DNA of 64,000 bases from an uncultured Alphaproteobacteria bacterium (lineage in GTDB: Bacteria; Pseudomonadota; Alphaproteobacteria; RF32; CAG-239), in assembly GCA_947630965.1 (NCBI GenBank), contig CANRJO010000001.1, positions 5,988 to 69,987 on the forward strand. Reading direction: 5' to 3'. Below are positions 20,406 to 50,873 of the stretch, in pieces (position 1 is the stretch's first letter; every line of letters starts with the position of its first letter). The notes beneath the pieces were generated by a model that saw only the letters and a program-made list of their open reading frames with translations, had not been told where the DNA came from and did no database searches. A program made the translations under genes and the position numbers.

Positions 20406-21188
20406 TTAATTGACAATATAAGATATCTGACCATAATCCACATCTAAGATGTCAATATTCAAGCCCTGAATTTCAATATGACACTCATCTAGTGGGAATG
20501 AGTATTGTTCAACCTCTAAGTCTTTATCAAAATTATCATCAAGCCAGACATAAGAGAAAGTCATTTCATTACCACTGATGCCGGTATAATATAACTCAAA
20601 GCCGTTAATTCTTTGTTCTGTTTGGATAGTTGTTTGCATCGCGGGCAAAATCCGCACATCTTCGGGTTCAATAAAGAAATAAGTGTCTAAAATGGCAAGA
20701 CGGTCGCCTTTCATTCTGCCAATATGGTTAAAAATGCGTCCCTGACCGTCTATAAGCAAAATATCACCTCTATCACCTTGTTGGACAAGCATATACCGCT
20801 CTTTACCTAACTGAACTTCGCCAAACGGTGTGAAAACATCATCCCGATGAATGTAAAAAGGCGAGTAACTGGAGCTCAAAACAGCATTTTTCGTGGCTTT
20901 CAAAACTTCGGTTTCCAAAGTATTGTAAACATCTGTTTTGCTTGAAACCATCAATGCCCCGGTGCGGGTTGTTTTGGCAATGCCGCGGTCAACATCATCA
21001 AATGTAACTTCCTCTACGCCCACCAGATAACCTGAATATTCATCGCTATCAATATAATAATCAACCTTTTGGTCTTTCCATGACGAAAAGAATTGATTTT
21101 TGGGTTTCATAAGTCTAATATCACCGCCATAAACGCAAGCTGTTAAAAAACAAAGTGTCGCAAGTAAAGAAATTTTTTTCATGGACAT
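20406..21188 (-). CDS. Hypothetical lipoprotein
   Basis: Lipobox LLATLCFLTAC. 260 aa with no recognisable domain. Confidence 0.45.
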   Translation of the reverse strand: MSMKKISLLATLCFLTACVYGGDIRLMKPKNQFFSSWKDQKVDYYIDSDEYSGYLVGVEEVTFDDVDRGIAKTTRTGALMVSSKTDVYNTLETEVLKATKNAVLSSSYSPFYIHRDDVFTPFGEVQLGKERYMLVQQGDRGDILLIDGQGRIFNHIGRMKGDRLAILDTYFFIEPEDVRILPAMQTTIQTEQRINGFELYYTGISGNEMTFSYVWLDDNFDKDLEVEQYSFPLDECHIEIQGLNIDILDVDYGQISYIVN

Positions 21189-46041: not shown

Positions 46042-48519
46042 ATGAAGAAAAATAAAATGTCAAAAATTTTGCTTGGCGTGTTAACAGCGCTGTTTGTGGG
46101 CGTTGTTGGCATGAGCGCGGCATCAGCGACAAGTTTTTATCAATCACGCTCCGTCAGTGAGATGATGGATCGTCGCCGCAATGCCGTACCTTACCAGACA
46201 ATCGGGGTGACGCAGCCTGATAGAATATTTGTATATCAAGCACCAGACGGGCAAGTACAAAGAAGCATTATTCACCCACAGTTAAGAAGAAGCGTTATTC
46301 AGCCGCGGGCAAGAAGAAACCTGTCAAAATGTGCCCAATCTCGCCAATCTCCCCAATCTCCCCAAAAACTTTGCAAACATTCGGTTGCTATGGAGCAAGT
46401 GCAACCGGTTGAGCGGGAAGTTTCCATTGAATTGGAATCCGAGCCGGAGCCTTTGATGCCAGTAGTAAAAAGAAAGCACGGCTACAAAAAGGCTGAACGT
46501 CCGCTCCCGAAGTCCAAGCCGATTGCCTTTTCAAAGCATAGAATTCCCGTTGAAGAAGACTTCGAAGAAGATTTAATGGTTCAGGATCTTGAACCTTATG
46601 AAATAAAAGACAATGAGAGCGAGATGGAGGCTTTTATTGTTAATGAGCCTGAAGAAGAGAGTGGTTGGGGGATCTTCTCTTTCCTCAAGCCTAAAAATAA
46701 AGACGGCAGTCTTTTCCCCGGAGGCGGTTGTGCAAATTGCCAAAAGAGCGGACCTTTGATTGATACGGGTCCGTGTACTTCATGCGATGACGGTCCGTTA
46801 TTGTATGCCGAACCGTGCGAATCCTGCGGCGCTTTAATTGATGATGGTCCGTGCGAAACATGTGAAGAGCCTTTGTTGTACGCAGAGCCGTGCGAATCCT
46901 GCCCGACTGTCTTAGAACCCGGCACATGCGAATCCTGCCCAACTGTCTTAGACCCCGGCACATGCGAATCCTGCCCGACGGTTTTTGAGGGTGGATCTTG
47001 CGAATCTTGTGGCAGCGTCTTAGGTGGCGGCTGTTGCGGCTGTTCTTGCCCGACCAAGGTTGAAATGCCTGACTGTTGCTCATTGGCGCCGCTTTATTTA
47101 GCGCATGTTGATTTCAACTTGGGCGATGGCGGAATAGCTCAAACCAAAGTTGGTGACTATCGGTTCCGTATTTTCGGTTGCCGTCGTTATGATCGGAACG
47201 CCGTTTTGAATCAGGGACGTGTTTTGCAAAAGAACATGGATTTTGCCAAGGTGTTTGAGCAAACAACGGGCGATTGCTATAATATTGTCAAACTCCCGGA
47301 TGACTTATGCTTACAAAAAGAGCCTTCGCCATTACCGGAATATATTTTAACGGCAGAAATTAACAACGTTTACATGGATATTTGTGACGGCTATGATTGG
47401 GATAATGCCAAAGCAAGTGGCACGCGTTCAGGTTCGGCAGAAATAACCGTTCACTGGAAGCTCTCAAACCTCACAAGAGATAAAATCTTGTGGCAGGGCA
47501 CCACCACAGGTTATGCTGACTTAAAAGATGGCGTTGAAAACGGCGAAATTCAGCTCATTGAAGACGCTTTTGCCGATGCTTCAAGCAACTTGCGTATGCT
47601 CCCCGAGTTTGAAACGCAGCTCGCCAAGCGTTTAACGCCTGAAGAGTTAACGGCTGAGCGCCAAGCCTTAATTGATGAAGAAGTGGCGCTTGATCCGGCA
47701 AAATGCAATTACAAGCCGAATTTTGATCAATGCACACCTGAGGCACCGTGCGAAGTTGTAGATGACGCATGGGCACAAACACAGGTTGTGGATACCATGT
47801 GCATCATTGATCGTCCGCCTTATGAGAGCCTGACACCTGAAAATCTTTACAAAGTCAGAGCTTCCGTTGTAGAGATTAATGCTCCAAACGGCAAGAAAGG
47901 CTCAGGGCTGATTATCAGTGAAAACTTTGTTTTAACCTCGGCGGATTTAGCCGATGATGAGGCGGAAACCGTTTGGCTCAAGACCATTAACGGCAAGAGC
48001 TTAACGGGGCGTATTGTTCGCGTCAATACCGGCAAGAACATTGCGCTGATCAAGCTTGATGAGCCCACGGATTATACGCCGCTGTCGCTGAACCTTGATC
48101 TGCCAAAAGTCAACCAAGAAGGCTTTATGGTGTTAGGTATGCTCAATGTTGATAACTTTGCCGATGGTGAAAATTACATTGACAACAAAGGTAAAGTGAC
48201 GGGCTATCGTTACAGCCAAGACAAAGGCACCGAGATCATGCTTGATACGGATGTCCAAAACATGACCATTGGTGGTGTTTTGGTGGACGAGCATGGCACA
48301 GTCAACGGTGTGGCGCACACGGGGCAAAAGACCGAAAATGGTAAAGATTTGTTCCTGCCGACTGAAACGGCGTTGCGCAGTGTTGGGCTTTCCATCTGTG
48401 AAAAGCTTTACGATAAGCCAAGCCCGTGGCAACGGACAGTATCTAAAGCCATAACGGTGAAGATTATGGACTCCAAGCCGCAAGCGCCAGAAGCTTTGCC
48501 TGTTGCAGAGCGTAAATAA
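46042..48519 (+). CDS. Secreted Cys-rich tandem-repeat protein with a C-terminal trypsin-like (S1/DegP-like) domain lacking the catalytic His and Ser
   Basis: Signal peptide. SQSPQSPQ low-complexity region. Block of CxxC repeats (PCESCPTVLEPGTCESCPTVLDPG...). C-terminal GSGLIISENFVLTSADL...NIALIKLD...IGGVLVDEHG resembles DegP blocks, but the His is replaced by Asp and GNSGGP by IGGV. 12 nt downstream of yifB. Confidence 0.55.
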   Translation: MKKNKMSKILLGVLTALFVGVVGMSAASATSFYQSRSVSEMMDRRRNAVPYQTIGVTQPDRIFVYQAPDGQVQRSIIHPQLRRSVIQPRARRNLSKCAQSRQSPQSPQKLCKHSVAMEQVQPVEREVSIELESEPEPLMPVVKRKHGYKKAERPLPKSKPIAFSKHRIPVEEDFEEDLMVQDLEPYEIKDNESEMEAFIVNEPEEESGWGIFSFLKPKNKDGSLFPGGGCANCQKSGPLIDTGPCTSCDDGPLLYAEPCESCGALIDDGPCETCEEPLLYAEPCESCPTVLEPGTCESCPTVLDPGTCESCPTVFEGGSCESCGSVLGGGCCGCSCPTKVEMPDCCSLAPLYLAHVDFNLGDGGIAQTKVGDYRFRIFGCRRYDRNAVLNQGRVLQKNMDFAKVFEQTTGDCYNIVKLPDDLCLQKEPSPLPEYILTAEINNVYMDICDGYDWDNAKASGTRSGSAEITVHWKLSNLTRDKILWQGTTTGYADLKDGVENGEIQLIEDAFADASSNLRMLPEFETQLAKRLTPEELTAERQALIDEEVALDPAKCNYKPNFDQCTPEAPCEVVDDAWAQTQVVDTMCIIDRPPYESLTPENLYKVRASVVEINAPNGKKGSGLIISENFVLTSADLADDEAETVWLKTINGKSLTGRIVRVNTGKNIALIKLDEPTDYTPLSLNLDLPKVNQEGFMVLGMLNVDNFADGENYIDNKGKVTGYRYSQDKGTEIMLDTDVQNMTIGGVLVDEHGTVNGVAHTGQKTENGKDLFLPTETALRSVGLSICEKLYDKPSPWQRTVSKAITVKIMDSKPQAPEALPVAERK
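46889..47032 (+). repeat. Four tandem 36-nt coding repeats (12-aa C-E-S-C-P-T-V-L-x-P-G-T units) inside the Cys-rich protein gene
   Basis: CCGTGCGAATCCTGCCCGACTGTCTTAGAACCCGGC and ACATGCGAATCCTGCCCAACTGTCTTAGACCCCGGC are read directly in the sequence. Two additional longer related units lie upstream (46790-46890). Confidence 0.8.
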
Positions 48520-48522
48520 ATC

Positions 48523-48552
48523 AAAGCCCCGAGTTTTCTCGGGGCTTTTTTC
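48523..48552 (+). terminator. Rho-independent terminator of the lipoprotein-yifB-Cys-rich protein operon
   Basis: AAAGCCCCGAG-TTTTC-TCGGGGCTTTTTT. Confidence 0.8.
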
Positions 48553-48649
48553 ATGGAATCAAAAACGCCCACAAAAGTGGACGTTTTTTGTTGCTTAACT
48601 AAAGCAAAAAAAAGGTACCTTAAAATTTTCTACTTGTCAAGCTCTAAAA

Positions 48650-48705
48650 CCCGCAGTTTCGCGTTGGTTAACGCGTTGCATTTAAAGGTACCTTTAAATT
48701 GCTAT
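48650..48705. repeat. Direct repeat copy X (related to 50322-50410)
   Basis: Shares GTTTCGCGTTGGTTAACGCG / AAAGGTAC / AAATTGCT blocks with copy Y. Confidence 0.5.
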
Positions 48706-48861
48706 GGTTCGACAGCCGTCGAATGTCATCCTGAACTTTGGCGCTTTAGCGCCATTCGTGAAGGATCCAGGAAAAAAGTAGCTAATTTGTTGTCCTGGAT
48801 TCTTCGGCTTCGCCTCAGAATGACGTTAAGAGGCTGTTGCAAGTTAAGAGAGGAAAAGAAA

Positions 48862-49905
48862 ATGCGATACATGATGTTTTTGTTAGGCTTGATGTTTGCA
48901 AATGTGGCAAATGCGATTGATTGTGAGAAGGTGCCGACTTGTGAAGAATTAGGTTATTCTACCGAAGATGATCCTTATTGTGCAGACAACGGTTATATGT
49001 ATTGCCCTTTAGATTATTCTTATAAAAAGTGCGTTAACTATGATTGCGCCAAAATGGGTTTTACCGATTCGGACAAAACATCGTGGTGTGGGAAGCTCAT
49101 CAAATGCAAAGGCAACGAAAGTTTCACAGCCTGTGCTTGTATTGAACCACAGCCGGAACCTTGCGCTGTCGGAAGCGTTTACTATGCCAACGGCGCATGT
49201 TCTTCTGTCGAAAAATATCAAGGTTGCGGCATACCCGTCGGTGTTGTGTATTATGTGACTGATAACGGCACTCATGGCAAGGTCATTAACTTAAAAGATT
49301 TGGGCAAAAGCGCGGGCGGTAAGTTTAATCCGGCTGATCCGTACAATAATTCTGTTTCTAAGGCTTTTGTATGGGGAATTGAAAATGATATTTCTAACCT
49401 GAAAAACTGGTATTGTAATAGCTTTAAATCTGTTGCACAAACAGAAGACAGAACGGCTGGTTTTTGGTCAGAGGGAAAAAATTATACCAATATTATTGCA
49501 AGCTATCAAAACGATGACTTGCAATATCCGGCGCCGGCAGCAAAAAAGTTTTATCCGCCGGAAGTTGAGCCGAAAAATCCGATTGTTGGGCAAGAAAAAT
49601 GGTATTTACCGACCATCGGTGAGCTTATGGACTTGTTCGGGTACGATTATCAAAACTTGGGCATAGACGTAGGTTGCGATGAGATTAACACAGGCGCAAC
49701 AGGAGAAATCAAGAAAATTGTCAATAACACTTTAAGCACGTTAAAGAATAATGGCGTGGATGCTGAAGAGCTTACCGAGAAAAAATATTCATCCTCATCA
49801 GAGTTTGATGCAAAGTACTCTTGGACACTTGATATGAAAGACGGAACAAGAACCTTCCACAGTAAGCATTACGGATTTTCTGTTCGCACAAGCCTAGCAT
49901 TTTAG
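48862..49905 (+). CDS. Secreted Cys-rich hypothetical protein
   Basis: The signal peptide MRYMMFLLGLMFANVANA begins at an internal ATG of the track ORF. The upstream part of that ORF is a leader full of repeats and terminator-like hairpins. 19 Cys. No recognisable domain. Confidence 0.55.
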   Translation: MRYMMFLLGLMFANVANAIDCEKVPTCEELGYSTEDDPYCADNGYMYCPLDYSYKKCVNYDCAKMGFTDSDKTSWCGKLIKCKGNESFTACACIEPQPEPCAVGSVYYANGACSSVEKYQGCGIPVGVVYYVTDNGTHGKVINLKDLGKSAGGKFNPADPYNNSVSKAFVWGIENDISNLKNWYCNSFKSVAQTEDRTAGFWSEGKNYTNIIASYQNDDLQYPAPAAKKFYPPEVEPKNPIVGQEKWYLPTIGELMDLFGYDYQNLGIDVGCDEINTGATGEIKKIVNNTLSTLKNNGVDAEELTEKKYSSSSEFDAKYSWTLDMKDGTRTFHSKHYGFSVRTSLAF

Positions 49906-49947
49906 AAGAAATGAGACGATTGAAACTTGCAAGGTAGCGACCTCCTC

Positions 49948-50120
49948 ATGACGTCATGCTGAACGAAGTGTAGCATCCAGGACAACAAACTCATCCATAT
50001 TGTCATTCCGAACTTGTTTCGGAATCTCGTCAAACAGATGCTGAAACGAGTTCAGCATGACGATTCGGATATTTTTCCTCCTGGATTCTTCGGCTTTCTT
50101 GCTCATAAGATGTACGTGAG
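49948..50120. repeat. Imperfect palindromic element of about 170 nt, with a central hairpin and arms related to the 48779-48826 segment
   Basis: CGTCATGCTGAAC...ATCCAGGACAACAAA on the left arm and GAGTTCAGCATGACG...TCCTGGATTCTTCGGCTTT on the right arm. Central CATTCCGAA-CTTGTTT-CGGAATC. A third, direct copy TTTGTTGTCCTGGATTCTTCGGCTTCGCC lies at 48787-48815. Confidence 0.6.
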
Positions 50121-50216
50121 GACACTTCTTTATTTTTTGCACCCAAGCCGAGGAATGCGGAGAGCGTGTGCAGATAGAGTGATTTTAAGCCCGAAAGTAC
50201 CGCAGCGCGCGAGGAT

Positions 50217-50243
50217 AAAAACAACCCCGACGGGTTGTTTTTA
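50217..50243. terminator. Terminator-like GC hairpin flanked by an A-run and a T-run (possible bidirectional terminator)
   Basis: AAAAACAACCCCGACGGGTTGTTTTT. Confidence 0.5.
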
Positions 50244-50321
50244 CCACAAGCGGCGTAGCTTTGTTAAAGTTGTGAGGAAGTGACAACAACCGATACAACT
50301 TTTACAAAGCAAGTGACCGAA

Positions 50322-50410
50322 ACGAGTTAGTTTTGCGGTTAACGCAAAGCTTACGAGTAAGACCATAAAGGTACATGAGGAAACTTTCGGGCTTGAAATT
50401 GCTCTAGGTG
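50322..50410. repeat. Direct repeat copy Y (related to 48650-48705)
   Basis: GTTTTGCGGTTAACGCA / AAAGGTAC / GAAATTGCT blocks in the same order as copy X. Confidence 0.5.
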
Positions 50411-50426
50411 CCAGCTATACGCATTC

Positions 50427-50873
50427 CTAGTAGGCAACAAGGCGGGCGGGGTTGCCTTGCAACAACATACACCTCTGCCCTGGGCTTAAAAGTGTGCCTG
50501 TTCCTTGGGTGATGGTCATCGTTTGACCACTGTCAAGTTTCACAATATATTCATAGCCACCTTGTTTGGAAAGGGCATCTTGCGCCATACCACCGGCCGC
50601 GCCGCCTAAAACCGCGCCACCTAAACCGCCCAACAAGTGCGCCGTGCTGCCGCTACCGATAGAGTAGCCCGCAATGCCACCGCCGGCAGCGCCGATAAGT
50701 GTGCCAAGCTCGTTGCCGCTCTTAACTTGAACTTGACGAACCGATAAAACGGTGCAGGGGCTTGCCGCCGAGGCTTGTCCGACAGAGCCGGTTGTATATT
50801 GATAGCTGTCAATATCTGATTGGCATGAAGCAAGCATGGCTGCCACGCCCAAGAGTGTTAAAATCTGTTTCAT
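50427..50873 (-). CDS. Glycine-zipper outer-membrane lipoprotein (SlyB / Rickettsia 17-kDa surface-antigen family)
   Basis: Lipobox AAMLASC. GxxxG glycine-zipper stretch LIGAAGGGIAGYSIGSGSTAHLLGGLGGAVLGGAAGG. Confidence 0.7.
   Translation of the reverse strand: MKQILTLLGVAAMLASCQSDIDSYQYTTGSVGQASAASPCTVLSVRQVQVKSGNELGTLIGAAGGGIAGYSIGSGSTAHLLGGLGGAVLGGAAGGMAQDALSKQGGYEYIVKLDSGQTMTITQGTGTLLSPGQRCMLLQGNPARLVAY

Follow-up and report, generated by a model that had tools for sequence, protein, structure and literature searches.

A 64-kb stretch of contig CANRJO010000001.1, from an uncultured gut alphaproteobacterium and referred to here as the window, contains two intergenic groups of short hairpin sequences, locus A (48724-48825) and locus B (49952-50123). 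We consider it very probable that both loci are clusters of CGTC-tagged repetitive extragenic palindromic (REP) elements, as defined by Di Nocera, De Gregorio and Rocco (2013, BMC Genomics 14:522; PMC3733652). In that description a unit consists of a CGTC tag, often replaced by TGTC or CCTC, an 8-9-bp stem in which complementary A and T residues come first and second, a loop of 4-5 nt and an unpaired 3-nt tail that is mostly CCA. The units occur mainly as dimers, among which the head-head (HH) arrangement with the tags outside predominates, and are intergenic, lying mostly downstream of genes, with convergent or co-directional neighbours. They form families of tens to thousands of units per host genome, their hosts are mainly alphaproteobacteria, no associated transposase is known for them, and many REPs are argued there to act as RNA (PMC3733652).

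The six units that we identified, U1 to U6, carry these features. The tag is CGTC in U2, U3 and U5 and TGTC in U1 and U4; among the 138 unique CGTC-2 units listed from the IMG/VR database, the base preceding GTC was C in 76 and T in 40. Perfect stems of 8 bp are present in U4 and U5, and the stems of U1-U3 are 9-10 bp long, start with AT and contain an internal tandem G.A or G.T/A.G mismatch. The loops are CTTGT in U4, CTCGT in U5 and GAA in U2 and U3 (CGAAG counting the closing pair), with U1 as the exception, and the tails are CCA in U1, U2, U3 and U6, CTC in U4 and CTG in U5. Among the IMG/VR matches listed, copies of low GC content likewise often end in a CTN tail. All three pairs, U1/U2, U4/U5 and U3/U6, have their tags outside. 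Locus B lies between convergent genes and locus A between co-directional genes, and no transposase, recombinase, integrase or invertase was found in the 64-kb window by Pfam scans of 38 window open reading frames (ORFs) and in the precomputed annotation of 42989-63888. The translation of U5, RHAELVSAS, is of the same sequence type as the peptide RHSELVSGS of a Sulfurovum CGTC-2 unit given in the supplement of the 2013 paper (PMC3733652). Judged by their sequences, U4 and U5 fit the CGTC-2 family as described there, with an 8-bp stem, a 5-nt loop and a listed sequence type.

Table 1 Units of loci A and B and the features around them, in window coordinates.
Feature	Coordinates	Strand	Description
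Candidate invertible promoter module	48597-48709		Inverted repeats 48597-48626 / 48680-48709 (I1); directly upstream of U1/U2
U1	48724-48769	+	Variant REP unit, TGTC tag, CCA tail, read from sequence; outer stem ATCCTGAAC/GTGAAGGAT with tandem G.A mismatch; extra inner hairpin GGCGC-TTTA-GCGCC
U1/U2 spacer	48770-48795		Minus strand reads ACAACAAATTAGCTACTTTTTT; tags outside
U2	48796-48825	-	CGTC-ATTCTGAGGC-GAA-GCCGAAGAAT-CCA; tandem-G.A subfamily
Cys-rich secreted-protein gene	48862-49905	+	Bracketed by loci A and B
U3	49952-49979	+	CGTC-ATGCTGAAC-GAA-GTGTAGCAT-CCA; outer left unit
U4	50001-50028	+	Canonical CGTC-2-type; TGTC-ATTCCGAA-CTTGT-TTCGGAAT-CTC, 8-bp stem
U5	50035-50062	-	Canonical CGTC-2-type; CGTC-ATGCTGAA-CTCGT-TTCAGCAT-CTG, 8-bp stem
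U6	~50082-50123	-	Degenerate outer right unit; intact only in 3' half, U2-type (AAGCCGAAGAATCCA)
'Y' arms	50134-50205 and 50364-50428	-	Inverted repeats I2, I19
'X'-like insert, ~160 nt	50206-50363		Interrupts 'Y'; bidirectional terminator-like hairpin 50217-50243
slyB-like lipoprotein gene	50427-50873	-	Convergent with the Cys-rich gene

The repeats themselves were readily confirmed. As a first-pass annotation of this DNA had noted, CGTCATGCTGAAC (49952-49964) and GTTCAGCATGACG (50050-50062) are exact reverse complements, and ATCCAGGA (49973-49980) and TCCTGGAT (50079-50086) form a second pair of reverse complements. A repeat finder reported a 26-nt direct repeat between 48785-48810 and 50071-50096 (88% identity, D1), along with the inverted pairs 49952-49977 / 50037-50062 and 49972-49989 / 50072-50089. 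The 18-mer TCCTGGATTCTTCGGCTT is present at exactly two sites in 64 kb (48793 and 50079), while shuffled controls gave a mean of 0.06 matches with up to three mismatches, and all five window matches to the motif GTCATNCNGAR, of which 0.49 are expected, fall at loci A and B. RNA folding, which had been proposed as a check, placed 49940-50125 far beyond its shuffles (z = -6.7 on the plus strand and -4.3 on the minus strand), and locus A gave z = -4.7 to -4.8.

The architecture differs from that first proposed, which was a single two-armed palindrome of about 170 nt with a central hairpin. Locus B consists of four REP-type units in the order + + - -, and a single nested hairpin is impossible because the two block pairs, outer-left with inner-right and inner-left with outer-right, cross and are non-collinear. 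The hairpin CATTCCGAA/TTCGGAATC that had been taken for the centre is unit U4, and the symmetry is centred on the U4/U5 spacer (6-12 nt), at about 50030. The third copy reported at 48787-48826 is made up of the end of a spacer and of U2, which with U1 forms another inverted pair. Nor does the repeat-rich stretch stop at 50120, since it runs on to 50428. Among the element types that had been suggested, the REP-like option was correct, and the likeness to Rickettsia palindromic elements (RPEs) was apt insofar as RPE-4 and RPE-6 are CGTC REPs (PMC3733652). A known structured small RNA received no support: Rfam returned no match at gathering thresholds in the whole window and only sub-threshold noise at E <= 10 over 48500-50500. 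A search for tRNA and tmRNA genes found none, and the unit sequences, when looked for in full-text literature, retrieved primers, noise or nothing.

We scanned IMG/VR twice, with the generic unit GTCATNCNGAACNNNNTTCNGNATC, which gave at least 120 stretches (L006-L125), and with the U2-type tandem-G.A variant, which gave at least 120 more (loci L161-L277). L-numbers designate the sequence stretches compared, which come from relatives' contigs, metagenome assemblies, IMG/VR loci and a Treponema plasmid. A covariance model was built from 89 IMG/VR units, none of them taken from the window, and was used to scan the full window. It recovered U5 (46.6 bits, E 7e-11) and U4 (45.9 bits, E 1e-10), followed by U3 (17.5 bits, E 0.01) and U2 (16.4 bits, E 0.02), and nothing significant beyond these four in the 64 kb; U1 scored 14.3 bits (E ~0.2) in a pooled search. 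A strict regular-expression search of the window for the hairpin found U4, U5 and one chance match at 20455. Six of the eight stem pairs in the model were fixed by the search pattern and are uninformative on covariation. The two free pairs do covary, the first being CG in 33, GC in 31 and UA in 18 units and the second UA in 64 and CG in 18, and 98.6% of the cells in the IMG/VR alignment were paired, compared with 20-52% when the partner columns were slid. The U2-type variant is also widespread, with a Watson-Crick free outer pair in 108 of 110 copies among the IMG/VR matches listed; two copies identical to the U2 core, GTCATTCTGAGGCGAAGCCGAAGAATC, were present among them. In the scan with the generic unit, the dominant forms among the matches listed were GTCATGCTGAACTTGTTTCAGCATC and GTCATCCTGAACTTGTTTCAGGATC, and more than one copy was present in many contigs. 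Neighbouring units in the IMG/VR sample had their tags outside in 51 cases, against 29 in tandem and 23 with tags inside. These are thus hairpin units with a conserved tag and covarying stems, and the unit that recurs is the dimer with its tags outside.

The Cys-rich gene (stop at 49905) and the slyB-like gene (stop at 50427) converge on locus B from either side. The heterodimer U4/U5, with its tags outside, is 85-89% identical to L154 10125-10186, L154 9900-9960 and L158 3994-4053, and is present at the same level of identity in at least four other places in ~40 kb of relatives' contigs. U3 is 88-92% identical to units at L156 3016-3064 and 4351-4389. In U6 the 5' half has been replaced by CTTGCTCATAAG..., which is the start of a repeat that we call 'X'; the unit shares the 18-mer with U2, and the same junction is found at L136 141-170. 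When 50002-50073 was removed in silico, the remaining spacer, ACAACAAACTCATCCATATTTTTCCT, aligned with the uninterrupted spacer of the U3/U2-type dimer of L156, ACAATAAATTAGCCATATTTTTCCG. On sequence evidence, locus B is therefore an older variant dimer, U3/U6, with a CGTC-2-type dimer, U4/U5, inserted into its spacer.

At locus A, a candidate promoter module precedes the dimer and the Cys-rich gene's ribosome-binding site follows it. The inner hairpin of U1 is kept by compensatory changes in a homologue at L154 3031-3078, where it reads GTCC-GTA-GGAC. Spacers like that of U1/U2 are present in relatives (ACAATAAATTAGCCATATTTTT in L156 and GAATAAAATTAGCTAATTTTTT in L154), and the orientation of the dimer relative to the gene is opposite in the window and in L154. 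The predicted fold of the 5'-untranslated region (UTR) with U1/U2 (z = -4.8) is a long stem-loop that leaves the ribosome-binding site unpaired.

The repeats continue beyond locus B into a mosaic that abuts the slyB-like stop codon (50427-50429). The interval 50121-50432 (minus strand, ~300 nt) folds more strongly than locus B (z = -8.3) and has no Rfam match. The two arms of a small palindromic repeat, 'Y', which are directly adjacent at L154 8655-8778, are separated here by an 'X'-like insert; pieces of 'X' recur in L136, L154, L155 and L158, and in L136 two halves of a U2-type unit bound 'X'. The nesting of the units together with the interruption of 'Y' by 'X' thus makes 49950-50428, as read from its sequence, one nested mosaic of small repeats. 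Contigs of independent assemblies start or end in these repeats: L278 corresponds to 48729-50258, L160 ends at ~50286 and L126 ends inside 'Y', and the contigs of L136 and L155 begin inside REP/'X' repeats. Evidently the repeats, or heterogeneity around them, break short-read assemblies, to judge from these contig ends.

The units are not unique to this locus, and the possibility that uniqueness would reduce them to a local duplication can be set aside, as they were found in at least 240 IMG/VR stretches, in relatives' contigs and on plasmids of Treponema saccharophilum. The covariance-model search across relatives that had been recommended recovered CGTC units in their contigs, with at least 12 further strong units in ~40 kb from close relatives. 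Of the named relatives recovered, the nearest was the metagenome-assembled genome (MAG) uncultured Alphaproteobacteria bacterium Lapin-001__bin79 (GCA_947588655.1, L136), and sequence identical to the window is present in several ENA metagenome assemblies. Relatives with a ~72% identical SlyB have an intergenic spacer of ~90 nt with a terminator hairpin only and no units, compared with 520 nt in the window; the repeat-rich spacer was therefore gained in the window's lineage.

Every strong model match in ~100 kb of this lineage adjoins a Cys-rich paralogue, with the exception of the cluster at the start of contig L136. The neighbours are P0122 and a 350-residue paralogue in L154, P0129 in L156 and L157, and, in L158, P0130 and a protein of 425 residues that has only its N-terminal 90 residues in common with the family.

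Copies are found far outside the lineage as well. The Treponema saccharophilum plasmid pTS1 (L279 1433-1651; NZ_AP025289.1 ~137395-137613) carries five CGTC-2 units scoring 29-46 bits, clustered between convergent genes, and the two large plasmids of that strain of this rumen spirochaete have 13 matching places in total. The CGTC-2 type is therefore shared by different phyla of gut-associated bacteria. Units of both CGTC types abound in IMG/VR contigs classed as viral, which may be true phage genomes or host fragments, and often flank single phage-like genes for terminase, prohead protease, HNH endonuclease or helicase. In IMG/VR loci with inverted units spaced by 300-3000 nt, the ORFs between the units, judged on a reading of their sequences alone, included no transposase and look ordinary (protease, terminase, HNH endonuclease, helicase, IspG). 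The IMG/VR abundance and the spirochaete copies point to a wide horizontal distribution among gut-associated genomes.

The window itself is a core chromosomal region encoding ribosomal proteins, ComM, AsnRS, RpoH, PrmC and Lpt proteins. The Cys-rich gene between the two loci belongs to a large paralogous family (48862-49905; L154 3108-4133 and 8791-9843; L156 3141-4178; L158 1348-2424 and 2655-3932). Its members have a signal peptide, a conserved Cys-rich N-terminal region of ~90 residues (68% identity) and varied C-termini that are often Lcl_C-like, as is the C-terminus of the window protein, under the Pfam cut-off. More than 100 homologues were found, and the few whose source is named come from MAGs labelled Alphaproteobacteria. 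The public gene call is a protein of 450 residues starting at 48553, which takes in both the promoter module and the U1/U2 dimer. Homologues begin at an MRY or MKY codon preceded by a ribosome-binding site, which corresponds to the ATG at 48862; the N-terminal 103 residues (48553-48861) are therefore, on this comparison of starts, probably an annotation artefact. A separate Cys-rich feature is present at 46891-46998, inside the gene for a trypsin-like protein of 825 residues, where three tandem 36-nt repeats encode Cys-rich repeats of the CESCPTVLEPGT type; similar CxxC motifs extend on both sides.

Upstream of the family members we found a recurring layout, in which a boxed module is followed by a REP dimer and then by the ribosome-binding site and ATG. 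In the window, inverted AAAGGTACCTT(T)AAA boxes surround a ~60-nt segment containing TTGACA, which points away from the Cys-rich gene. Between homologous outer flanks this segment is reversed in L158 (1122-1195 and 2499-2572) relative to the window and L156 (2875-2948), and from its sequence 48597-48709 looks like a candidate invertible promoter module. No inversion was seen at the window locus itself, where L001 and L160 have the same orientation and L278 starts downstream of the module, and a consensus scan of 48597-48709 called no promoter. One and the same slot is filled by different dimers, of the CGTC-2 type in L158 and of the U3/U2 type in L156. This swapping of dimer types, taken together with the dimer that is inverted relative to L154, therefore marks the REPs as exchangeable parts of a conserved flank.

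Several observations weigh against the assignment of both loci to CGTC-tagged REPs, and against their spread by transposition. The canonical units are U4 and U5 alone; half of U6 is missing, U1-U3 score only 14-18 bits, and U1 has a 24-nt inner hairpin where a loop of 4-5 nt is expected. U1-U3 are assigned here to the superfamily and not to any one of the four CGTC families of the 2013 description (PMC3733652). The window holds just 5-6 units in two clusters. When a collection of genomes, to which that of the window apparently does not belong, was scanned for the 18-mer, 21 stretches were returned, an estimated chance level for a sequence of this length, and 20 of them were coincidences in coding sequence, so that this one scan yielded a single true relative, L136. 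All strong copies in the lineage adjoin paralogues of one gene family and may therefore reflect gene duplication and not transposition, and neither a mobilising enzyme nor a same-locus excision or insertion polymorphism was seen.

How might such units multiply? We infer that these repeats spread as dimers. By analogy with GTAG REPs and their REP-associated tyrosine transposases (RAYTs), spread would most likely proceed through single-stranded DNA hairpins acted on in trans by an enzyme encoded elsewhere, and the tag could serve as a cleavage or guide motif on the single-stranded hairpin, as modelled on GTAG REPs, RAYTs and REPINs (REP doublets forming hairpins). A hairpin-processing enzyme of this kind would account for the conservation of the tag, the covariation in the stems and the lack of target duplications; no duplication was consistent across the five dimer copies inspected. 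Copies would also be multiplied passively, through duplication or recombination of Cys-rich gene cassettes that carry REPs, and part of the REP multiplication in this lineage was probably passive, by cassette duplication. Dimers that are transcribed are predicted to form stable stem-loops in 5' and 3' UTRs, which could, as a secondary effect, protect mRNA or slow read-through. The literature that we searched contains, since 2013, nothing on the CGTC REPs beyond citations of their original description.

The close association with one gene family raises the question of whether the dimers are instead selected cis-regulatory RNA structures of the Cys-rich family and not selfish repeats, with a 5'-UTR stem-loop following a phase-variable promoter and a stabiliser or terminator in the 3' UTR, recurring along with a conserved cassette. 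We regard this as possible but on balance rather unlikely. REP dimers do separate the promoter module from the ribosome-binding site in the window and in L156 (3013-3105), and have the same placement in L158 (1241-1307 and 3990-4057) and L154 (3031-3078 and 9896-10190). The non-coding region upstream of the paralogues is 73% identical over 336 nt, while the proteins are ~52% identical, and the 5'-UTR fold described above, with its unpaired ribosome-binding site, is what such an element would offer, as is the argument that many REPs act as RNA (PMC3733652). However, dimers of two types occupy the same slot in L158 and L156, and the inversion of the dimer between the window and L154 would hardly be tolerable for a strand-specific RNA element. 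The units are also found in unrelated contexts and phyla, such as phage contigs and the Treponema plasmids.

A related proposal, which we think unlikely, is that, in this group of uncultured gut alphaproteobacteria, the REP dimers are a fixed part of a modular Cys-rich expression cassette and not free-living repeats. The order of the cassette may then be an invertible promoter, a REP dimer in the 5' UTR, the variable gene and a REP/'Y' mosaic at the 3' end, with the dimers acting as RNA stem-loops that may set mRNA stability, or as homologous handles that may promote duplication, inversion or exchange. If true, this would provide the CGTC REPs with a host function and with a transposase-free means of spread, their propagation having been open since 2013.

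It is very improbable that the elements are classical miniature inverted-repeat transposable elements (MITEs), that is, deletion derivatives of an insertion sequence moved by a DDE transposase and flanked by target-site duplications. The overall look of locus B is that of a long imperfect intergenic palindrome, and ATATT is present on both sides of the U4/U5 insert. No such flanking duplication accompanies the dimers at L154 9896-9964, L154 10123-10190 and L158 1241-1307, however, and the arms consist of independent hairpin units, each 28 nt long, which are also found singly. The elements are without a target-site duplication, without terminal inverted repeats beyond the hairpin units and without a transposase, and no transposase with matching ends or parent insertion sequence was found in the window or in the IMG/VR loci inspected.

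We attach an equally small probability to a site for site-specific recombination, either attC-like or consisting of invertase sites on both sides of the Cys-rich gene, which would then be a cassette. The gene is indeed bracketed by direct (26 nt, 88%, D1) and inverted (18 nt, 94%, I4) repeats, and an invertible-looking segment lies just upstream. In Neisseria, CGTC-1 (dRS3) repeats serve as integration sites for filamentous prophages. Against this, the inverted repeats of the invertible-looking module have a different sequence, AAAGGTACCTTTAAA, the 64 kb contain no integrase or invertase, and the locus is in a single arrangement in three independent assemblies. An integron attC site was rejected on the core consensus, as GCTGAAC and TCCGAAC each miss RYYYAAC/GTTRRRY (attC R''/R'), and on the same lack of an integrase. 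Chance similarity or a purely local duplication without a family, for which one could cite only that the 64 kb contain no more than two loci, separated by 1.2 kb, has practically no standing, being refuted by the shuffle controls, the model scores, the hundreds of copies elsewhere, in IMG/VR among other places, with covarying stems, and the existence of a published family.

With its CGTC-tagged REPs, the window adds an example from an uncultured alphaproteobacterium of the gut to a repeat superfamily that is already known. A REP cluster is in itself ordinary, and is of value here for annotation, as regards the 450-residue gene call and the assembly breaks in repeats. The interest lies mainly in the nested architecture and in the tight link to a possibly phase-variable family of secreted proteins. 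The linkage of the dimers to this gene family, together with the invertible-looking promoter, offers a tractable system in which to set transposition against cassette recombination.

Among known systems, the gut invertons (Bacteroides fin-type and E. coli fimS) are comparable with the module at 48597-48709 only, which has short inverted repeats and a -35-like hexamer, lies upstream of a variable family of surface or secreted proteins and encloses a segment whose orientation differs between paralogous loci. Unlike in invertons, inversion at the same locus was not observed and no recombinase lies nearby. Mosaics of small repeats in Neisseria adjoin surface-protein genes. The dRS3 units (CGTC-1) of that genus resemble those of the window in being clustered with small repeats in large mosaic intergenic regions (PMC3733652), but differ in stem and loop type, and the companion repeats 'X' and 'Y' are unrelated to theirs. 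Rickettsia RPE-4 and RPE-6, which correspond to CGTC-4 and CGTC-1, respectively (PMC3733652), share with the window units the CGTC tag, a stem starting with AT and an alphaproteobacterial host. The Rickettsia elements, however, are known for in-frame insertion into protein-coding genes, whereas the window units are intergenic, and the stem and loop of RPE-6, ATTCCCGC-GAAA-GCGGGAAT, differ from those seen here.

The nearest match is the CGTC-2 family, with its C/TGTC tag, 8-bp stem starting with AT, 5-nt loop and 3-nt tail, its heterodimers with tags outside, its intergenic location in alphaproteobacterial hosts and no adjacent transposase (PMC3733652). The window units depart from it in the tails of U4 and U5, which are CTC and CTG and not CCA, in the variant units U1-U3 and U6 with their tandem G.A mismatches and, in one case, an extra inner hairpin, and in their nested arrangement and their link to the flanks of a single family of paralogous genes. 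The GTAG REPs, REPINs and bacterial interspersed mosaic elements (BIMEs) of E. coli and Pseudomonas differ from the window units in their tag, which here is CGTC or TGTC, and the Pfam scans of the window gave no match to the Y1-transposase family. We know of no RAYT-type gene flanked by CGTC units, and none was found here. The GTAG REPs are nevertheless like the window units in being short tagged hairpins, in having inverted doublets as the likely replicating unit, in clustering in 3' regions and in leaving no target duplication, and by this analogy they provide a model for how the window units probably work.

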